NCBI RefSeq assembly: GCF_013315695.1
Contig: NZ_CP054353.1
Direction: 5' to 3' (one strand)
Source of the DNA: Escherichia coli
GTDB taxonomy: Bacteria > Pseudomonadota > Gammaproteobacteria > Enterobacterales > Enterobacteriaceae
DNA length: 64,000 nt
A program made the translations under genes and the position numbers. The notes beneath the pieces were generated by a model. That model was not told where the DNA came from. It worked only from the letters and a program-made list of their open reading frames with translations, and did no database searches. Shown here piece by piece: positions 8,722 to 18,308 of the stretch (position 1 is the first letter of the stretch; the number at the start of each line of letters is the position of its first letter).

Positions 8722-9339
8722 ATGGATAAAAATGTAGAGCATGTATTAGTTGATGCAATTGAAAATAAGCAATCTTTAACAGTCGTTTACTTAGGAGGGA
8801 GCCAGCCCGGAACATTAAGGAATATTTCTCCGATTAGTATAAATGGGGATAAATTGCGGGCAAGATGCCATAGTTCTGGAGCAGTAAAGGTTTTCAATCT
8901 TGGGAAAATACAGTTACCCAGTGACTCCTGCGCGGTATCTATGCACTATGGAGATTTAGAAGTTAAAGCTTATGAGACGATGCAGAGCGTAAATGACAAC
9001 TTTCATGCCCTTTATCCTGAAGGACGATGGGGTGTTGATTTTAATGAGCATCGCTTTGCTTTATTTGATTTTTTTAAAAACGGGAAACGAAAAAAAACGG
9101 CATTTATGGCAATTGAGTTCAGGGAAAGAGATGAAGAGAAAATAATAACAGGTGTAACAATTGATATTGGTATATCTGGAACAGTGATTTCTGAGAAGTC
9201 CCGAATCCCAAAAAGACGACCATGGGTAGTGGTTGGTCCCGAACACGGAGAATACAGTACTTATTCAACTTTGGACAAGGCTGCTACAGCGTTTTTTGAG
9301 AGGCTTTCGTTGATAGCATCCGGCCTGGAAGATAATTGA
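8722..9339 (+). CDS. Hypothetical moron protein (205 aa), unknown function, AT-rich
   Basis: Strong RBS GGGAGG 5 nt before ATG 8722; no recognisable motif, no signal peptide; followed by a terminator; lies between Q and the tRNA block. Confidence 0.6.
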   Translation: MDKNVEHVLVDAIENKQSLTVVYLGGSQPGTLRNISPISINGDKLRARCHSSGAVKVFNLGKIQLPSDSCAVSMHYGDLEVKAYETMQSVNDNFHALYPEGRWGVDFNEHRFALFDFFKNGKRKKTAFMAIEFRERDEEKIITGVTIDIGISGTVISEKSRIPKRRPWVVVGPEHGEYSTYSTLDKAATAFFERLSLIASGLEDN

Positions 9340-9468
9340 TTTTATGTTTGGTATTCAGAGTTCGCCGTGCTTAAGAAAGTCAAGATTCTAAAAATACTGA
9401 ATGAGCTACTTGTGTTATAACAAAAATGCTATTAGTGTGTTAAGAGTGGTTACTTCGCCACACAACTT

Positions 9469-9493
9469 AAACCCGCCACTGAGCGGGTTTTTT
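9469..9493 (+). terminator. Rho-independent terminator downstream of the moron gene
   Basis: AAACCCGC-CACTGA-GCGGGTTT hairpin followed by a T-run. Confidence 0.6.
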
Positions 9494-9617
9494 GTACCTG
9501 TAAACTTGGTGCAGTACAGTAAACACGCTGGTGGTCGTGAATACTGGCTTTTTATCTTGCTGGCTTTTTAGACAAGAGTTATTGGTATGTCACGTTAACC
9601 GGAAAGGGTAAAAAGAC

Positions 9618-9815
9618 ATGCTGAAACAGCAGGATATGACAGAAACCGCCAGAGTTGTGTTTGATGAATTAAGCGTTACCGAACCGGCGACAGTCGGGGA
9701 GATTGCGCAGAATACTTACCTTTCACGCGAACGCTGCCAGTTAATACTGACCCAGCTTGTTATGGCGGGTCTGGCAGACTATCAGTGCGGTTGTTACAGA
9801 CGCCTTCAGTCCTGA
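9618..9815 (+). CDS. Small hypothetical protein (65 aa), possible winged-helix regulator
   Basis: ORF with AAAGGGTAAAAAG region before the ATG; helix-rich sequence GEIAQNTYLSRERCQLILTQLVMAGLA; no confident family. Confidence 0.35.
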   Translation: MLKQQDMTETARVVFDELSVTEPATVGEIAQNTYLSRERCQLILTQLVMAGLADYQCGCYRRLQS

Positions 9816-9949
9816 AGGCTTTTTATTTGTGGTGAATGGGCGGCTGGTGGGGGGGCGACACCTGTCAGTCCTTTGCTTATGTGTTGATGATAATTTACCT
9901 TTTGGGGCTATAATTGAGCTAACCAATTGCTAATGAAAGTAAAATTATA

Positions 9950-10663
9950 ATGGCTGTTGTCTGTTCAGTTATCATGGTTTGCTCCCCAATTAATATTTTT
10001 CTTGAAAAGGATACGTTGTCACTTAAGCCAGGCTCAGTTGTTCTGGCCACCAAATGCATCAGGGAGCTTTTCCTTATGCATTATGGCAAAGTTAAAATTG
10101 TCGATATAAGCGAATCCGTCGTAAGTCAATATCTGGAAAGTCAGCATAAGCTGACGAGGACTCGTCTGACTGACATTCCGCTTTACCTGTTGCTGGAACC
10201 CAACAATCCTGCGTTGGCTGCGGCTTTAATTACCAGCCAGGGATTTTCCGGAGAGGCCACGGATATGTTTCTTATGATGGCCTGCCTGTCTCTGTTTGAA
10301 ACAGATGAACGGATGTCATTGTTTTTAAGTGGATGTTTATCCAGCATAAGTGCCAAAGTCAGGGCGATAATTCAGACAGATATATCAGCAAGCTGGACGC
10401 TTGGTGCGATTGCTCTACAGTTGCATATGAGTGAGAGTTTGTTAAAGACAAAACTGAAAAATGAAGGGGGCATGTTCAGTCGCTTGTTGCTGGAAGAGCG
10501 GATGCGTGTTGCTGTAAATATGTTATGTTCCCGGCATGGATATGGACAGGCTATAGCAGAAAAATGCGGTTATTCAAGCAGGTCCTACTTTATTTCTGTA
10601 TTTCACCGCTATTATGGCTTCCCGCCAGACAGATATGTATCCAGGCAAGGGCTTGATTATTGA
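9950..10663 (+). CDS. AraC-family transcriptional regulator (prophage-encoded; start uncertain)
   Basis: C-terminal AraC-type HTH (WTLGAIALQLHMSESLLKTKLKNEGGMFSRLLLEERMRVAVNML...GYSSRSYFISVFHRYYGFPPDRY). Confidence 0.7.
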   Translation: MAVVCSVIMVCSPINIFLEKDTLSLKPGSVVLATKCIRELFLMHYGKVKIVDISESVVSQYLESQHKLTRTRLTDIPLYLLLEPNNPALAAALITSQGFSGEATDMFLMMACLSLFETDERMSLFLSGCLSSISAKVRAIIQTDISASWTLGAIALQLHMSESLLKTKLKNEGGMFSRLLLEERMRVAVNMLCSRHGYGQAIAEKCGYSSRSYFISVFHRYYGFPPDRYVSRQGLDY

Positions 10664-10691
10664 TTTTCATCTGATTATTATTTTTTGGCTC

Positions 10692-10767
10692 GGCCCTTTA
10701 GCTCAGTGGTGAGAGCGAGCGATTCATAATCGCCAGGTCGCTGGTTCAAATCCAGCAAGGGCCACCA
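10692..10767 (+). tRNA. ileZ: tRNA-Ile2 (anticodon CAU, ileX/ileZ-like)
   Basis: 76 nt cloverleaf GGCCCTT...AAGGGCC-A-CCA; anticodon loop TTCATAA; close to the E. coli ileX sequence. Confidence 0.8.
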
Positions 10768-10774
10768 TCACATA

Positions 10775-10851
10775 CCGCCATTAGCTCATCAGGATAGAGC
10801 GCCAGCCTTCGAAGCTGGTTGCGCGGGGTTCGAGTCCTCGATGGCGGTCCA
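10775..10851 (+). tRNA. argN: tRNA-Arg (anticodon UCG)
   Basis: 77 nt; acceptor CCGCCAT/ATGGCGG; anticodon stem-loop CCAGC-CTTCGAA-GCTGG; T-loop GGTTCGAGTCC; 3' CCA. Confidence 0.8.
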
Positions 10852-10864
10852 TTATCTGTACCCT

Positions 10865-10941
10865 GCGTTATTAGCTCAGCCGGACAGAGCAATTGCCTTC
10901 TAAGCAATCGGTCACTGGTTCGAATCCAGTACAACGCGCCA
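10865..10941 (+). tRNA. argO: tRNA-Arg (anticodon UCU)
   Basis: 77 nt; anticodon loop CCTTCTAAG; T-loop GGTTCGAATCC; 3' GCCA; one acceptor-stem mismatch. Confidence 0.8.
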
Positions 10942-10952
10942 GACTTATTTTT

Positions 10953-10980
10953 CCCGGCTCGCTTTTGCGGGCTTTTTTTT
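10953..10980 (+). terminator. Terminator-like hairpin plus T8 after the tRNA cluster
   Basis: GCTCGC-TTTT-GCGGGC followed by TTTTTTTT. Confidence 0.45.
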
Positions 10981-11433
10981 AAATGTCTCACAATTCAGAC
11001 GGTTGACAGTTGTCTGTTTTGCGGGGAGTTTGTTAAAAGAAACTGGCATGGTGAATCCCCCTGTGCGGAGGGGCAATCAGCAACTGGTGTTTTGTCACCG
11101 ACCCTTATCCTTTCTGTGCGGGTTCAGGTGCTGATACTGAACTCACCGGGAGGCACCCGGCATCATGTGCATGATGATACAGATACGCGGCTTTAGCCCC
11201 TCTCCGGAGGGGCTTTCTTGTGGGCAAAAAAAAGCCCGAGTGGGTTCGGGCAACAGCATGAGATATACATTTTTATAATCGAATGGATTTTAACCAGAAT
11301 TCATAAGGCTGCGCAACTGCGCGGTCTTTTTCGAATTGCGGGCTGTCGTCTCTCTTCTGCCATTGTCCTGTAACTTCCGGACTTCAGCCCGCTCCTTATT
11401 TTACTCACAATATTATCCCGGCCGGGAGGATTC

Positions 11434-13395
11434 ATGGCATTTAAACACTATGACGTGGTCAGGGCGGCATCGCCGTCAGACCTTGCGAAACGACTGACAC
11501 AAAAACTGAAGGAGGGGTGGCAGCCATTTGGCAGTCCGGTGGCCATCACGCCTTATACCCTGATGCAGGCCATTGCGGCGGAAGGTGATGTCACCACACC
11601 TGTGGTGGTGAAGCCGTCGGATGGAGAAGGCGCAGTTATCAGCAACACCAGCAACCCGGAGTATTACTTTGTTGTTGCCCTGGCCGGGCAGTCAAACGGT
11701 ATGGCGTATGGTGAAGGGCTTCCGCTGCCGGAGACATATGACCGTCCGGACCCGCGTATTAAACAGCTGGCGCGTCGCAGCACTGTCACGCCGGGTGGTG
11801 CGTCCTGTAACTACAATGACATTATTCCTGCGGACCACTGCCTGCATGATGTTCAGGATTTGAGTAAGTTTTCACACCCGAAAGCCAGCGCAGCTCAGTA
11901 TGGATGCGTGGGGCAGGGATTACATATCGCGAAGAAATTGTTGCCGTTTATTCCGGCGAATGCCGGTATTCTTCTGGTTCCGTGCTGCCGTGGTGGTTCT
12001 GCATTTTTGGCGGGCGATGAAGGTACCTTCAGCGAATCCACCGGCGCAAGCGAGACCTCGGCACGCTGGGGTGTAGATAAGCCACTGTACAAGGACCTGC
12101 TTACCCGTACTCAGGCCGCACTGAAGGCCAACCCTAAAAATATTCTGCTTGCAGTGGTCTGGATGCAGGGCGAGTTTGATTTGAAACAGGGTGCATACGC
12201 CACTCAGCCGGGGCTGTTTGATTCCATGGTGGAAAAATATCGTTCTGACCTGTCGGAATTCGGAGGTCAGTGTCTCGGGGGCTCTCCGTCATCAGTTCCC
12301 TGGATTTGTGGCGACACGACCTACTACTGGAAGCAGACTTATTCTTCGCAATACGATGCGGTGTATGGTGCATATAAGACGAAATCCGCAAAAAAAATCT
12401 TCTTTGTGCCGTTTATGACGGATGAAAACGGGCGAAATGTGGGTACCAACGAGCCGTCAGAAGATCCGGATGTTGCGGATATTGGGTATTACGGAGCCGG
12501 TGGTCGAACGGACGCCAAAACCTGGACGACGGCTGACCGTAAAACGCATTTTGGATCATGGGCACGTCGTGGGATTATTTCCGACCGTCTGGCAACGGCG
12601 ATTCTTGTGCATGCCGGGAGAACCGCTGAATTCATTACCGGAAAACAGCCTGATACGGTGAAGCCCACCGGACCTTCCGGTGAAGGTACGGAGAGAGAGC
12701 CGGAAGGTCCGGTCAGTAACCGAACCCTGATGAGTCTGCTGGCGTCCGGCGAAGACCTGGCATCACAGGGCTGGCGCTATTATCACAAACCGGCGAGCGG
12801 AGACAATGTTAACAAAAACATTGCTGAAGCGGTGGTCAGTGATGCGGGGGCTACGGGAGGTAAGGCCCTGCAACTGAATAAACCGGAAAACCACATCTGG
12901 TTTCTGGAGCATGATGCAGCCGGGCAGGGGGCAGAGTTGCTGAAGAAAGGAGGACGTGTGAGCGTACGGTTTAAGTTGCCGGGTTCACTGGTGCCGAATC
13001 AGTTTGCCCTGGGCATTTACTGGCAGTTGTCGTCCCTGCCGGAGGGAGTGACGCTGGCAGAGGAAGGCAACGACATGCTGATGTCCTTCTTTCTGCAGAC
13101 GGATGCGACGAACCTGAACGCGATGCACCACAAGAAGCCGAATGCGAAGCTGGAAACGTTCGGGGTCTTTGATAACGGATGGCACACACTGGCTTTTGAG
13201 TTTGCCGGAAACAACAGCATTCAGGTGACGCCGGTACTGGATGAGAAACGGGGGACGCCGTTCACACTGGTGAAATCTCCGGCATCAGGGGCGGCGGACA
13301 AACTGCAACTGACAGGCATATCAAAGGCGGCGACATATACGCTGCTGATTGACAGTGTGAAGGTGGAAGTGAACAACGCGGATGCCGCGGCATGA
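11434..13395 (+). CDS. nanS: Prophage 9-O-acetyl-sialate esterase NanS-p (DUF1737 plus SASA/SGNH esterase)
   Basis: 653 aa; N-terminus MAFKHYDVVRAASPSDLAKRL (DUF1737); esterase motif YYFVVALAGQSNGMAYGE; sits where Stx phages carry nanS-p downstream of stx. Confidence 0.85.
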   Translation: MAFKHYDVVRAASPSDLAKRLTQKLKEGWQPFGSPVAITPYTLMQAIAAEGDVTTPVVVKPSDGEGAVISNTSNPEYYFVVALAGQSNGMAYGEGLPLPETYDRPDPRIKQLARRSTVTPGGASCNYNDIIPADHCLHDVQDLSKFSHPKASAAQYGCVGQGLHIAKKLLPFIPANAGILLVPCCRGGSAFLAGDEGTFSESTGASETSARWGVDKPLYKDLLTRTQAALKANPKNILLAVVWMQGEFDLKQGAYATQPGLFDSMVEKYRSDLSEFGGQCLGGSPSSVPWICGDTTYYWKQTYSSQYDAVYGAYKTKSAKKIFFVPFMTDENGRNVGTNEPSEDPDVADIGYYGAGGRTDAKTWTTADRKTHFGSWARRGIISDRLATAILVHAGRTAEFITGKQPDTVKPTGPSGEGTEREPEGPVSNRTLMSLLASGEDLASQGWRYYHKPASGDNVNKNIAEAVVSDAGATGGKALQLNKPENHIWFLEHDAAGQGAELLKKGGRVSVRFKLPGSLVPNQFALGIYWQLSSLPEGVTLAEEGNDMLMSFFLQTDATNLNAMHHKKPNAKLETFGVFDNGWHTLAFEFAGNNSIQVTPVLDEKRGTPFTLVKSPASGAADKLQLTGISKAATYTLLIDSVKVEVNNADAAA

Positions 13396-13546
13396 TAAAA
13401 AAAGGCCGCCAGCAATGAAGGAAAGGGATGAACTGTGTCCACTACATGAATGCTGGCGGCTGGTAAAACGACCACGATGACACCGAAGTTTGCGATATTT
13501 TTCTACAAAAATAAGTAAATCATGTCAACTATCACGGTGAGAAACC

Positions 13547-13729
13547 ATGACATTTCTGAACCAGTTAATGCTGTACTTCTGTACGGCAGTCTGTGTTATG
13601 TATCTTCTTTCGGGTGGGTACAGGGCAGTGCGCGATTTCTGGCGCAGGCAGATTGATAAAAGGGCCGCTGAGAGAATCAGCGCCAGTCAGTCAGCCGGAA
13701 GCAAACCCGAAGATCCGCTCATTCCGTAG
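13547..13729 (+). CDS. Small hypothetical membrane protein (60 aa)
   Basis: One hydrophobic helix LMLYFCTAVCVMYLLSGG then a basic tail; weak RBS; low confidence. Confidence 0.3.
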   Translation: MTFLNQLMLYFCTAVCVMYLLSGGYRAVRDFWRRQIDKRAAERISASQSAGSKPEDPLIP

Positions 13730-13766
13730 TCACTTTCTTGACAACACCTTTCAACGAGAAAATCCC

Positions 13767-14036
13767 ATGTCAGAAATCACATCCCTGGTCACTGCTGAGG
13801 CAGTGAAGGAAGTCCTGCGCTCTGAAGAAGTCCTGAGCGCACTGAAACAGAAACTCCGCCAGAACCTTGAGGCGCGTCTTGATGCAGAAGTGGATGCCAT
13901 TCTGGATGAGCTGCTGGGCGTACCAGCGGTTCCGGAGCCGGAAGGCATTGCGGATGACAGTACTGTTTCAGATGGCGTCGGGTCTCAGCCTGACGGTAGT
14001 GAAGAGCCTCAGCCTGACGGCGAAATGATGATGTAA
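13767..14036 (+). CDS. Small acidic hypothetical protein (89 aa)
   Basis: ATG 13767 inside the longer ORF-track call; acidic C-terminus ...DGSEEPQPDGEMMM; between nanS-p and the holin. Confidence 0.4.
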   Translation: MSEITSLVTAEAVKEVLRSEEVLSALKQKLRQNLEARLDAEVDAILDELLGVPAVPEPEGIADDSTVSDGVGSQPDGSEEPQPDGEMMM

Positions 14037-14111
14037 CCATGCGCAGGGGGTGTCGGTGTGAGCTGATGCCCCACTTGTTGTTGTGAGCTTCCGGATTGCG
14101 GGAGACGGGGT

Positions 14112-14327
14112 ATGTACCAGATGGAAAAAATCACAACAGGTGTGTCATACACCACGTCAGCGGTGGGAACGGGCTACTGGTTCCTGCAGTTGCTGGACAG
14201 GGTTTCCCCGTCTCAGTGGGCGGCAATAGGCGTGCTGGGGAGTCTGCTGTTTGGGCTGCTGACATATCTGACTAACCTGTATTTCAAAATCAGAGAGGAC
14301 CGGCGTAAGGCGGCGCGGGGAGAGTAA
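14112..14327 (+). CDS. Holin, phage 21 S-type (pinholin-like) with dual-start motif
   Basis: 71 aa; MYQMEK... dual Met start; ...[51 protein letters not shown] closely resembles S21. Confidence 0.85.
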
Positions 14328-14331
14328 AGTG

Positions 14332-14682
14332 ATGAATAAAAAATATGAACTGGTTGTTAAGGGGATAAATAATTACGGGGATAAGGTTACTGTTACTGTG
14401 AAGCCGGAAGGTGACGGGCAAGCGTCGCTGTTGTTGCCAGATGTGGCGATTAGTCTTGACCGTACTGAAGGTGCCACGCTGGAGTTTTACGAAGCTGAGG
14501 CGAAAAAGCAGGCGAAGCAGTTTTTCATGGATGTTGCTGCCGGGTTATGTGAAGGGGATGGTCCGTTGCCGGAAAAGCGCCCCGTAATTTTAGAGGCGCA
14601 GGATGTGTTGATAACCTACAAAGGAAAGCTACCGGGAAGAATTACTGGTTCTCTGAAGACTCCACCGGAATCACAACCTTAA
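14332..14682 (+). CDS. Hypothetical protein (116 aa) inserted between holin and endolysin
   Basis: ATG 14332 after GGGGAGAG; soluble, no known motif; unusual position inside the lysis cassette. Confidence 0.5.
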   Translation: MNKKYELVVKGINNYGDKVTVTVKPEGDGQASLLLPDVAISLDRTEGATLEFYEAEAKKQAKQFFMDVAAGLCEGDGPLPEKRPVILEAQDVLITYKGKLPGRITGSLKTPPESQP

Positions 14683-14745
14683 TTCACTGACCGGAACAGA
14701 TAAACCTGTCCGTGGGCAGAAACCGATAAATCCTGATAAATATCC

Positions 14746-15279
14746 ATGAACGCAAAAATCAGATACGGCCTGTCGGCTGCCGTTCTGGCGCTGATTGCCG
14801 CAGGTGCGCCTGCGCCTGACATTCTCGACCAGTTTCTGGATGAAAAGGAAGGTAACCACACCACGGCATACCGTGATGGTGCGGGTATCTGGACTATCTG
14901 CCGCGGTGCCATCCTGGTGGATGGCAAACCTGTCGTTCCGGGCATGAAGTTGTCGAAGGAAAAATGCGACCAGGTTAACGCCATTGAGCGTGATAAAGCG
15001 CTGGCGTGGGTGGAGAAAAACATCAGAGTGCCGCTGACCGAACCCCAGAAAGCGGGGATCGCGTCATTCTGTCCGTACAACATTGGTCCCGGTAAGTGTT
15101 TCCCGTCGACGTTTTATAAACGAATTAATGCAGGTGATCGCAGGGGAGCGTGTGAGGCGATTCGCTGGTGGATTAAGGACGGTGGCAGAGACTGCCGTAT
15201 CCGCTCAAACAACTGTTATGGTCAGGTATCCCGTCGTGACCAGGAGAGCGCGCTGGCGTGCTGGGGAATCGACAGATAA
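14746..15279 (+). CDS. SAR endolysin (phage 21 R-type lysozyme, GH24)
   Basis: 177 aa; N-terminal signal-anchor LSAAVLALIAAGAPAP; lysozyme motifs EGNHTTAYRDGAGIWTICRGA and YNIGPGKCFPSTFYKRINAGD. Confidence 0.85.
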   Translation: MNAKIRYGLSAAVLALIAAGAPAPDILDQFLDEKEGNHTTAYRDGAGIWTICRGAILVDGKPVVPGMKLSKEKCDQVNAIERDKALAWVEKNIRVPLTEPQKAGIASFCPYNIGPGKCFPSTFYKRINAGDRRGACEAIRWWIKDGGRDCRIRSNNCYGQVSRRDQESALACWGIDR

Positions 15280-15438
15280 GCAGAATATTTTGCTGAAAAA
15301 TAAGGCATGGCCACGCGGGCGGATAACACGAAATCCTGCGAACTGGCGAAACGTAAGTGAATAAAAGTAAAAACCCCGTTTGTTGGCACCAAGCGGGGTT
15401 TTGTGTTTCCTGACTCCGGAAAAGTCAAAGGAGAAAGT

Positions 15439-15576
15439 GTGTTTGATTTTAGCAAACTGATTCGGGAGATTCGAGTGATGGCTGAAAAATTATCCACCTG
15501 GAAGTTCATTCTTATCTGGCTGGTGTTTGTGATTATGGCCTCCGGTTATTTCATCGGTCAGATACGCTGGTGGTGA
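15439..15576 (+). CDS. Small hypothetical membrane protein (45 aa, GTG start) between endolysin and Rz
   Basis: AAGGAG RBS 6 nt before GTG 15439; hydrophobic core WKFILIWLVFVIMASGYFIG; stop 1 nt before the Rz start. Confidence 0.3.
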   Translation: MFDFSKLIREIRVMAEKLSTWKFILIWLVFVIMASGYFIGQIRWW

Positions 15577-15577
15577 A

Positions 15578-16015
15578 ATGAACCGCGTACTGTGCGTGGT
15601 CATCATTGCCCTGCTGGTGGCCTGTGGTGCGCTTAGTCTGGGGCTGAATCATTACCGTGATAACGCCATGACCTACAAAGAGCAGCGCGATAAAGCCACA
15701 TCCATCATCGCTGATATGCAGAAGCGTCAACGTGATGTAGCAGAACTCGACGCCAGATACACAAAGGAGCTTGCTGATGCTAACGCGACTATCGAAAGTC
15801 TCCGTGCTGATGTTTCTGCTGGTCGTAAGCGCCTGCAAGTCGCCGCCACCTGTGCAAAGTCAACGACCGGAGCCAGCAGCATGGGCGATGGAGAAAGCCC
15901 AAGACTTACAGCAGATGCTGAACTCAATTATTACCGTCTCCGAAGTGGAATCGACAAGATAACCGCGCAGGTTAACTACCTGCAGGAATACATCAGGACG
16001 CAATGCCTGAAATAA
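15578..16015 (+). CDS. Rz i-spanin
   Basis: 145 aa; N-terminal TM then coiled-coil; embedded Rz1 in the +1 frame. Confidence 0.8.
   Translation: MNRVLCVVIIALLVACGALSLGLNHYRDNAMTYKEQRDKATSIIADMQKRQRDVAELDARYTKELADANATIESLRADVSAGRKRLQVAATCAKSTTGASSMGDGESPRLTADAELNYYRLRSGIDKITAQVNYLQEYIRTQCLK
15771..15962 (+). CDS. Rz1 o-spanin lipoprotein (embedded in Rz)
   Basis: Lipobox LLVVSAC followed by a Pro-rich stretch KSPPPVQSQRPEP; wholly inside Rz in another frame. Confidence 0.7.
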   Translation: MLMLTRLSKVSVLMFLLVVSACKSPPPVQSQRPEPAAWAMEKAQDLQQMLNSIITVSEVESTR

Positions 16016-16216
16016 TTTTTTTGCAAATCACAAAGTCAATTTAATGAGCCTCGCGATGCGGGGCTTTTTGCAATAAATGCGTACCGCAACGCATGTTTTT
16101 TACACCGAACCTGCCCCTTTGGAATGGGCCTTTGAGGATACCAGTTAGTGCTGGCGAGCCTCGGTGGGCTGGTTTCCTATGCGGCAAAGGTTCATTTCAA
16201 ATGGTAGGTAAACGTT

Positions 16217-16738
16217 ATGAATATCGTGCCACTTAATTACAAAGGTGAAATTGTCAGTTTCAACACTGATGGTTGGATCAACGTCACAGGTGTTGCTGAG
16301 AGATTTGGAAAACGCATTGATAACTGGATGCGTTTGGCAGAAACGCTTGAATACGTTCGTGCTTTAGACGAAGCGTTGACCGGGAAAGAATCTCAAATTT
16401 TACATCCCTCACAATCGAGGTATGTAAAAACCAGCAAGGCACGAAAGGACAGGGGTGGTGGTACGTGGCTACATCCAAAACTTTCAGTTGCATTTGCCCG
16501 TTGGTGTGATGCTCGTTTTGCTGTGTGGTGCGACCTGCACATTGATAGTCTGCTTCGCGGTGAACTGACTGAGCAGCAGAAATATGAGCAAGCATGTCGC
16601 ATTCGCGATGACCGGAAATCAAAAGCCAGCAATGGGGCAAGAGAGATGGCTCGCTGGCGATGGGATAAGCCGGTTATTGAAGCAAATGTTGAGTACTGGC
16701 GCGAGCAACTGCAGTTGACTCTCGATATCGCGTGCTGA
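16217..16738 (+). CDS. KilA-N domain protein (second copy in this prophage)
   Basis: 173 aa; GGTWLHPKLSVAFARWCDARFAVWCDLHI is the KilA-N core. Confidence 0.55.
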   Translation: MNIVPLNYKGEIVSFNTDGWINVTGVAERFGKRIDNWMRLAETLEYVRALDEALTGKESQILHPSQSRYVKTSKARKDRGGGTWLHPKLSVAFARWCDARFAVWCDLHIDSLLRGELTEQQKYEQACRIRDDRKSKASNGAREMARWRWDKPVIEANVEYWREQLQLTLDIAC

Positions 16739-17446
16739 TGGCAAACGCAAAACTGCGTTATCGGAAAAATCAAAGCATTACGAGAACTGAGCAACGGCTA
16801 TCCATTACAAAGCCCATCTACGGGTGGGCTTGATAATGAAACCGGAATTTATTCTTGGCAACCAGTTACGGCAGTACCACGAAACAACCCAAGCCAGTAA
16901 GTGGGGAAATAACACTGGCAGCCACTGAAAGATGAAGCTCCTGCCTTAAGGCAAAAAAGATTCTTTGTGGTGGCGGACTGATGGAAAGACATCGGTTATT
17001 GCAGAGGCCATTCAATGAGTGGTCTCGACAATGGCTTATACCCTACACGGGATAACTTAACTGATATCCCTTTTAAAGGATAAAGGTATTCAAGCCTGAC
17101 ACATCATGCGCTGTATCGTCGCCGTATTCCTGCATTAACAGAGACCGCAGCCCGACAGGGAGACTCCTCTGCGCGAGTGTGCGGGGATAATCAAAAACGA
17201 TACACACCGGGGTTTACCGCGTTAACGGAGCGCGGCGTTGTCCCCTCATAGTCGCCTGTCCGGTGCGATGGTGGAAGAAACCGGATGTTTATCACTATTA
17301 ATTGATGACACAGAAATGGATTCATTGAATTTCAGCACGTTTTTGTATTCGTGTTATTGAACATCTGTTTATTTTACTTTTAACATATTGATAATAAAAA
17401 GAGCTGTAAATCTTTAGATGAGTCGATTTTGTCCGGGGAAGTTCAA

Positions 17447-17587
17447 ATGGATTTTATGCTGACGGTTTCTGGTGTGGTTATCCTGTCCATTGCTTATACT
17501 GCAGATAAATATGGCTGCCATTTGTTATCACGTATTGGCGCTTATTGTTCGTTGATGCTGATTTTCTCGTCGCTTTTTTTTGAGTAA
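17447..17587 (+). CDS. Small hydrophobic peptide (46 aa), candidate only
   Basis: MDFMLTVSGVVILSIAYTADKYGCHLLSRIGAYCSLMLIFSSLFFE; AT-rich island; convergent with the RHH gene; weak RBS. Confidence 0.2.
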   Translation: MDFMLTVSGVVILSIAYTADKYGCHLLSRIGAYCSLMLIFSSLFFE

Positions 17588-17719
17588 GTTATATTAATTA
17601 TAACAAATAATTTTCTGTGTTATTTTTTCAGGCTATCCCGTCAGAGGGGAAGCCTGTACTGCCGGGGAGCGAATGGAAAACTGATGTGTCCGGTAACTGC
17701 GTGTTCTGTGAACACCATG

Positions 17720-17905
17720 TTACTTAATTATGTAATTCATACCCGAACTCTCTGTTGACAGCCTTCTTCTGCAGGCTTCAATAACCCACGCTGAAAAGTT
17801 TCCTGAACCTTTCAGATCAAGAGCGATGTTAATTTGTTCAATCATCTGGTTTGGAAATCGGATGTTGCGGGTTGTTGTTCTGCGGGTTCTGTTCTTTGAT
17901 GACAT
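17720..17905 (-). CDS. Ribbon-helix-helix (CopG/Arc-like) DNA-binding protein
   Basis: 61 aa; RNIRFPNQMIEQINIALDLKGSGNFSAWVIEACRRRL fits the beta-strand/helix/helix RHH pattern; AT-rich promoter-like region upstream (17906-18060). Confidence 0.5.
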   Translation of the reverse strand: MSSKNRTRRTTTRNIRFPNQMIEQINIALDLKGSGNFSAWVIEACRRRLSTESSGMNYIIK

Positions 17906-18112
17906 AATGTTTCCCCATATTCAGTGTTGCTGATTTGTATTATCTGAAGTTGCTTTTACGTTAATTTGATGCAGATCAATTAATACGATACCTGCGTCAT
18001 AATTGATTATTTCTCGTGGTTTGATGGCGTACACACATGTTGTGATAAACCTTATATAGATGATAATCATTATCATTTTCGTGGGTCCTTTCCGGCGATC
18101 CGACCGGTTACG

Positions 18113-18124
18113 GGGCGGCGACCT
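18113..18124 (+). other. cosN cohesive-end site (lambda-type)
   Basis: ACGGGGCGGCGACCTCGCGGATTTTCACTATTTATGAAAATTTTCCGG matches the lambda cos region (GGGCGGCGACCT 12-nt cohesive end, then TCGCGGGTTTTCGCTATTTATGAAAATTTTCCGG) just upstream of Nu1. Confidence 0.7.
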
Positions 18125-18308
18125 CGCGGATTTTCACTATTTATGAAAATTTTCCGGGATCCATGTCCGGTTTCTCTGCAAGTTAACCATATGAAAAATA
18201 TAAAAACATGCTTTCCATGAACCGGGCATGCGCAAAAAATAGACACTAAAACCGGACATGACCGGTTTTGTTGTGATTGTGAGGTGAGAGTTTTTTGCGA
18301 GGTGAGGA

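Follow-up and report, generated by a model that had tools for sequence, protein, structure and literature searches.

A gene between holin and endolysin in an Escherichia coli lambdoid prophage is a member of the YdfR/DUF1327 family

We analyzed a 64,000-nucleotide stretch of Escherichia coli DNA (contig NZ_CP054353.1 of assembly GCF_013315695.1; hereafter, the window). In its S21-type lysis cassette, an open reading frame (ORF) at 14332..14682 lies between the genes for the pinholin (S) and the signal-anchor-release (SAR) endolysin (R). A first-pass annotation had described this ORF as unassigned. We found that the gene is already known: it is a catalogued, widespread, and optional member of the YdfR family. 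Membership in the YdfR/DUF1327 family is essentially certain. The protein matches Pfam's DUF1327 (PF07041) with E = 1.8e-41, across positions 1-92 of the 93 in the model, and it matches PHROG 406, PHROG 2091, and PHROG 1085 with E around 1e-62 (for PHROG 406, E = 8.5e-62 across profile positions 1-113 of 114). By BLASTP, residues 1-78 are 47% identical to YdfR from E. coli K-12 (b1555, P76160; E = 7e-23). Several E. coli chromosomes (strain 582, VR50, S88, and others) match the window with 99.9% identity over 13400-16100, and at this locus, RefSeq labels the product as "YdfR family protein" (WP_001037011.1). Because of the K-12 homolog, the Pfam match, and the RefSeq label, the ORF cannot be called unassigned.

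The Pfam and PHROG matches, together with 256 homologous clusters in a protein database, also imply that the ORF did not arise by chance. An exhaustive search with a hidden Markov model against 1.84 billion cluster representatives returned no more than 101 clusters, which makes this a small family. Scans of the protein against NCBIfam and PADLOC gave no match. (At E <= 1, PADLOC's defence models matched neither the window protein, nor the long form from phage 86, nor K-12 YdfR.) An Rfam scan of 9000-18000 found no RNA family that overlaps the ORF. Two papers on Shiga toxin (Stx) phages, which deal with lysis cassettes or the Q-S region, make no mention of an ORF between S and R, and DUF1327 appears in one genome-comparison paper as an annotation label only. 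The gene is absent from the main text of an envelope-integrity screen (PMC3879167) that is cited for ydfR.

The local signals agree with a translated gene. The ORF begins with ATG (there is an alternative GTG one codon upstream, at 14329), and this ATG is 4 nucleotides past the stop codon of the pinholin gene. Its Shine-Dalgarno (SD) sequence, GGGGAGAG, is embedded in the 3' end of the holin gene, and the duplex with the anti-SD has an energy of -8.5 kcal/mol, whereas the window's background averages -2.9 (5th percentile, -7.6). The 116-residue product has an isoelectric point of 5.2; its highest mean hydropathy over 19 residues (Kyte-Doolittle scale) is 0.59, and the hydropathy scan found no transmembrane segment. 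The first-pass annotation was thus right that a soluble ORF with its own ribosome-binding site (RBS) sits between a pinholin and a SAR endolysin (both the coordinates and the PHROG classes agree).

We then compared lysis cassettes and searched with profiles, as that annotation had suggested. The ORF is indeed an optional extra when compared with phage 933W, in which R starts 4 nucleotides after S. But the arrangement is not unusual, as had been supposed. It is present in the Qin prophage of K-12, in H-19B, BP-4795, Stx2 phage 86, and mEp460, and in most Stx1a and Stx2c phages. Among 427 deposited phage records with this holin family, 101 have the YdfR-family gene (by tblastn; these include H-19B, BP-4795, YYZ-2008, Stx2 phage 86, and mEp460). 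If phage types are counted from the first words of the record names, then the carriers are 41 of 47 Stx1a phages, 15 of 17 Stx2c phages, and 2 of 124 Stx2a phages. The DNA of the ORF matches 3,158 of 5,426 complete E. coli genomes (58%), at up to 8 places per genome. Overall, the holin-YdfR-endolysin arrangement is common but optional in E. coli lambdoid prophages.

Phage 933W lacks the gene. Its S and R proteins are 99% and 93% identical to those of the window, and it lyses its host, so a required role in lysis is excluded. These comparisons show that the gene is dispensable for S21-type lysis. The first-pass annotation had allowed that the ORF might prove to be a standard conserved component of such cassettes with a known role. 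A common conserved component it is, but no known role comes with it.

As for the protein itself, an AlphaFold2 model, built with a 28-sequence alignment, predicts an acidic beta-beta-beta-alpha core that is followed by a variable and disordered tail. In the core, residues 5-14, 18-27, and 38-43 form strands and residues 50-74 form a helix, with predicted local distance difference test (pLDDT) scores of 76-94; residues 78-116 are predicted to be disordered. The core is acidic in 26 of the 28 members (the mean net charge is -3.7). The conserved motifs are YEL.VK, DR.EG, and LEFYE.EA. In close alignments of 14-16 sequences, YEL.VK, DR.EG, and LEFYE are invariant, and across all 28 members, only M1, Y53, and E54 are. 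The lengths of the proteins vary via the tail, from 103 amino acids in K-12, to 114-116, to 176-183 with a coiled-coil-like extension, to 268-287 in phage 86 and its relatives. Pfam scans of the 268-residue form and of all 28 aligned members found DUF1327 and no other domain. There was no significant fold match in the PDB (Foldseek, best E = 0.25) and no structural relative in BFVD (the best hit, with E = 0.02, is to an uncharacterized protein). Sequence searches against PDB chains with two family profiles found none below E = 0.1.

The window's allele differs from that of H-19B, BP-4795, Stx2 phage 86, and most Stx1a and Stx2c phages, which encode proteins that are 87-91% identical over residues 1-112 and lie in the same position. 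(In phage 86, unlike the window, the gene is extended to 268 amino acids and is followed by a reverse-strand ORF.) Compared with phage 86 and H-19B, most of the amino-acid differences fall in the loop between the second and third strands, residues 16-31 (14377-14424), which reads GDKVTVTVKPEGDGQA versus PDKITVTVALEIGGYP. Over 112 codons, there are 13 non-synonymous and 5 synonymous differences. The C-terminal end of the window protein (...PPESQP) matches another group of alleles (P0054 and P0119). Together, the loop differences and the C-terminal match suggest intragenic mosaicism or diversifying selection.

What does the protein do? The only functional data that we found for the family are for K-12 YdfR (PMC13232886, RNA Biol 2026). 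In that study, YdfR was recovered from a two-hybrid library screen with RNase G (Rng), a paralog of RNase E, as the bait. Residues 1-72 of YdfR sufficed for a two-hybrid interaction with Rne 1-597, which is the N-terminal catalytic half of RNase E, and Rne 1-598 co-purified with Strep-YdfR (PMC13232886). The eluate of Strep-YdfR also contained nucleic acid that was resistant to DNase (PMC13232886). Exactly the stretch of YdfR that interacts, residues 1-72, is conserved in the window protein.

We tentatively favor a reading in which the window protein is made late and binds a host protein in the cytoplasm, plausibly RNase E. We would rate this mechanism, taken as a whole, as possible rather than probable. 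The gene itself sits within the late (lysis) operon, and its translation starts from the SD in the 3' end of the holin gene. Late in infection, the acidic core would serve as a protein-binding module and bind a host target in the cytoplasm. This target may be the catalytic N-terminal half of RNase E, which is the sole target with experimental support (for residues 1-72 of the K-12 homolog). By binding it, the protein would tune how host transcripts or late phage transcripts are processed or decay, and it would act outside of the holin-endolysin-spanin machinery. A cytoplasmic binder is consistent with the lack of a transmembrane segment, the acidic core, and the confident AlphaFold2 model of that core.

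Several observations weigh against this reading. First, the RNase E data were obtained by overexpression and two-hybrid assays with a homolog that is only 47% identical, which is one reason why our confidence is low. Second, few transcripts changed when K-12 YdfR was overexpressed, and growth was unaffected (PMC13232886), which argues against a strong global effector of RNase E in uninfected cells. Third, the authors were unable to exclude a contaminating protein as the cause of the RNA that YdfR retained (PMC13232886). Fourth, the linkage to the holin gene is strict, with a gap of 4 nucleotides in every E. coli copy, which could mean that the protein has a holin-related role.

To consider this fourth point, we turn to the junction. 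The DUF1327 ATG is exactly 4 nucleotides after the holin stop codon, and an R21-type lysozyme gene follows, in the window, Qin, phage 86, H-19B, mEp460, Evi, PhiR42_1, and 689R5. In these cassettes (anti-SD duplex energies were computed for all except Qin), the DUF1327 start uses an SD in the 3' end of the holin gene, with energies of -8.5 to -9.5 kcal/mol. In 933W, the same SD, with the same spacing, serves R instead, and the energy of -8.5 kcal/mol is alike for the DUF1327 start in the window, phage 86, and H-19B and for the R start in 933W. The R leader in cassettes with DUF1327 is AU-rich and lacks an SD (AUAAAUCCUGAUAAAUAUCC-AUG, +0.6 kcal/mol). The 20 nucleotides of this leader (14726-14745) are identical in phage 86, H-19B, 689R5, and Evi, and the SD-less leader is kept even if there is extra intervening DNA, such as the reverse-strand ORF in Evi and phage 86. 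Thus, the gene moves R away from the RBS that is coupled to the holin, and R is left with a conserved leader that has no SD. We infer that this displacement lowers or re-times the synthesis of endolysin. The K-12 Qin prophage has the same family and gene order (essQ-ydfR-rrrQ-rzpQ) and the same 4-nucleotide gap after the holin stop, but its YdfR has 103 amino acids and an unrelated C-terminal tail, and ydfR overlaps rrrQ (ATGA), while the window's gene ends 63 nucleotides before R. (In PhiR42_1, as in Qin, the stop codon of ydfR overlaps the start of R.)

Two proteins of 187 amino acids, P0104 and P0087, are in-frame fusions of the holin to DUF1327 (...RKAARESNSMTQNYEL...). They are consistent with the loss of one base at the GGAGAGTAA junction, and P0104 represents 13 member sequences. 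These could be real fusions or assembly errors.

The junction might be explained if the gene modulates the timing of lysis. The protein could act from the cytoplasm on the C-terminal tail of the pinholin or on the membrane-tethered SAR endolysin, or the gene could act in cis by uncoupling the translation of R from that of S (or both). In the cis version, a lower output of endolysin would give the holin tighter control over a leak-prone SAR endolysin. We consider this alternative doubtful. Besides the strict position of every E. coli copy (it starts 4 nucleotides past the stop of a class II holin, and an R21-type lysozyme gene follows) and the takeover of the SD that R uses in 933W, the rare fusions would place the domain on the cytoplasmic side. 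T4 RIII is a precedent for a soluble cytoplasmic antiholin cofactor. On the other hand, 933W lyses without the gene, the dual-start motif of the holin already encodes its own antiholin, and distant members of the family lie far from any lysis gene (see below). Each PHROG match is to a family whose function is unknown, with none in the lysis category, and neither PHROGs nor NCBIfam showed a relationship to a known antiholin; the protein also has no transmembrane segment or signal, unlike antiholins that derive from holins. Finally, no lysis phenotype is reported, and overexpression of K-12 YdfR had no effect on growth (PMC13232886).

We then examined relatives of the gene outside of the lysis cassette. 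There are distant members that consist of a stand-alone core of 72-76 amino acids, and all of these pass Pfam's DUF1327 at E <= 0.001. (When two of them were used as tblastn queries, only the E. coli copies between S and R were found among the deposited phages.) In L008, L009, L010, L011, and L012, the DUF1327 core follows the minor tail gene M, and wherever the contig is long enough (L008, L011, and L012), the tail gene L is next. In L007, the core is just downstream of the C-terminus of the tape measure, and in L013, it is between a Q-type antiterminator and a holin. Because distant members occupy other slots in the late operon, the domain is not tied to lysis. Many DUF1327 genes are immediately followed by a small convergent ORF (see the table), although the window's copy has no such partner. 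The partners in Evi, which is in the slot between S and R, and in L007, which is in a tail slot, are homologous to each other (65% identity, phrog_25324), so a two-gene module has moved between slots; the other partners are unrelated. The core domain is thus a mobile accessory of the late operon and not specific to lysis.

These relatives bring up another alternative, which is that the gene is of the moron type: it would help the lysogen or shield the prophage (for example, by superinfection exclusion, defence, or anti-defence), and it merely sits in a permissive slot in the late operon. Polymorphism between close relatives, as with the Stx types above, the variety of late-operon slots (often with a convergent partner, and in Evi and L007 moving as a unit), and the variable tails and fusions would all fit. 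But in crude consensus scans, we found no sigma-70-like promoter on the + strand in 13400-14332 and no terminator in 14683-14745, and the gene is translationally coupled to the holin. Also, K-12 ydfR has almost no RNA-seq reads under standard growth (PMC13232886), the PADLOC models gave no match, and the window's copy lacks a convergent partner. In terms of Hendrix's definition of morons, the gene is present or absent between collinear relatives (it is in 101 of 427 records, and 933W lacks it at an identical junction), but its own promoter and terminator and expression from a repressed prophage were not seen (by the crude scan, and with K-12 ydfR nearly silent). We reject the strict version for the window's copy, due to the lack of a promoter or terminator and the coupling to the holin, and we think that a moron-type gene in the broader sense is unlikely.

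The first-pass annotation had suggested either a lysis regulator or a moron, and neither is established: the absence of the gene from 933W excludes a required lysis role, and the strict moron is not supported. What does stand is that the presence/absence polymorphism and the relatives in other late-operon slots fit a mobile accessory gene.

Direct action on RNA, via a fold like that of a double-stranded RNA-binding domain, is very unlikely: the DNase-resistant nucleic acid in the Strep-YdfR eluate (PMC13232886) would fit, but this co-purification could be indirect, the AlphaFold2 model lacks the first helix of that domain (alpha-beta-beta-beta-alpha), and the acidic core in 26 of 28 members is the opposite of what RNA binding needs.

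Returning to the reading in which the window protein binds RNase E, known effectors of RNase E include phiKZ Dip, T7 gp0.7, and T4 Srd, as well as the host proteins RraA, RraB, and RapZ. If the K-12 result transfers to the window protein, then this protein would join them as a small protein that makes contact with RNase E in the course of phage development, and it would resemble RapZ in contacting the catalytic N-terminal half. (RapZ also appears in PMC13232886.) A bolder version is a long shot. The action of RNase E on host mRNAs, or on the long late transcript, would be diverted or dampened by YdfR-family proteins, whose variable tails and loops between the second and third strands would give them their specificity. 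More than half of E. coli genomes would then have a host-takeover factor hidden in a lysis cassette, where the insertion of the gene would also re-set the translation of endolysin.

The features of the cassette are listed in Table 1, along with the convergent partners from other loci.

Table 1. The YdfR-family gene and its surroundings in the window, and convergent partner ORFs of DUF1327 genes at other loci
Feature	Coordinates	Strand	Remarks
Class II (S21-type) holin, 71 amino acids, dual-start motif Met1/Met4	14112..14327	+	phrog_20/phrog_9876; 99% identical to 933W S
SD GGGGAGAG in holin 3' end	14317..14324	+	Used by the DUF1327 ORF here and directly by R in 933W
YdfR/DUF1327-family ORF, 116 amino acids	14332..14682	+	PF07041, E = 1.8e-41; WP_001037011.1; 47% identity to K-12 YdfR
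Conserved core domain, residues 1-75 (predicted)	14332..14556	+	Three beta strands and a long helix; isoelectric point 4.8; pLDDT 76-94
Variable C-terminal tail, residues 76-116	14557..14679	+	Predicted disordered (pLDDT <50 for 78-116); mildly basic
Spacer, 63 nucleotides	14683..14745	+	Last 20 nucleotides (14726-14745) are ATAAATCCTGATAAATATCC, the SD-less AU-rich R leader
SAR-type endolysin R, 177 amino acids	14746..15279	+	phrog_7; 93% identical to 933W R
Rz i-spanin	15578..16015	+	phrog_13; Rz1 embedded in the +1 frame, ATG 15777 to 15962
Convergent partner ORFs	L001 4317-4631; L015 2244-2540; L006 335-649; L007 693-992; L008 4247-4486; L013 4488-5042	-	

The gap between R and Rz (15280-15577) is a second variable slot in the lysis cassette. 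In the window, it contains a strong terminator-like hairpin (15370-15402, with 13 pairs plus a T-run) and a small ORF, whose best start is the GTG at 15439 (with AAAGGAG as the SD) and which ends at 15576, just before the ATG of Rz. The product is a 45-residue single-pass membrane protein (phrog_6632, function unknown). Phage 933W (S-R-ant-Rz/Rz1) and phage 86 have ant in this slot instead.

Upstream, between an esterase gene and the holin, there are two small and conserved ORFs, with DUF1378 (13547-13729, phrog_494) and DUF826 (13767-14036, phrog_311), and a weak hairpin (14047-14072) lies just upstream of the holin. Further upstream, 10692-11281 contains three tRNA genes (Met-CAT, Arg-TCG, and Arg-TCT), followed by the small RNA STnc100 (11017-11225, + strand) and the anti-stx2 small RNA AsxR (11229-11281, - strand). 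The gene for the esterase (NanS-p-type SASA, 11434-13395) is directly after AsxR. No stx genes are present; the layout is that of a Stx phage's late region, minus the toxin. The prophage of E. coli strain 582, which is 99.9% identical, has an IS21 element (istA/istB) between its KilA-N and terminase genes (L005 17863-19832). The list of ORFs for the corresponding part of the window (about 17000-18300) suggests no IS21 insertion, and the gene for the small subunit of terminase starts at about 18309.

As a catalogued and widespread gene, the ORF offers little new biology by its discovery. Nevertheless, few genes of unknown function are commoner in the prophages of E. coli (Stx1a and Stx2c phages among them), and it is transcribed together with the lysis genes, through which toxin and virions are released. 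The presence of the core domain in tail-operon slots suggests that its function is probably not lysis itself. The takeover of the RBS, the relatives in tail slots, and the report that YdfR interacts with RNase E together raise a testable question, which is whether RNA decay is controlled late in prophage induction.
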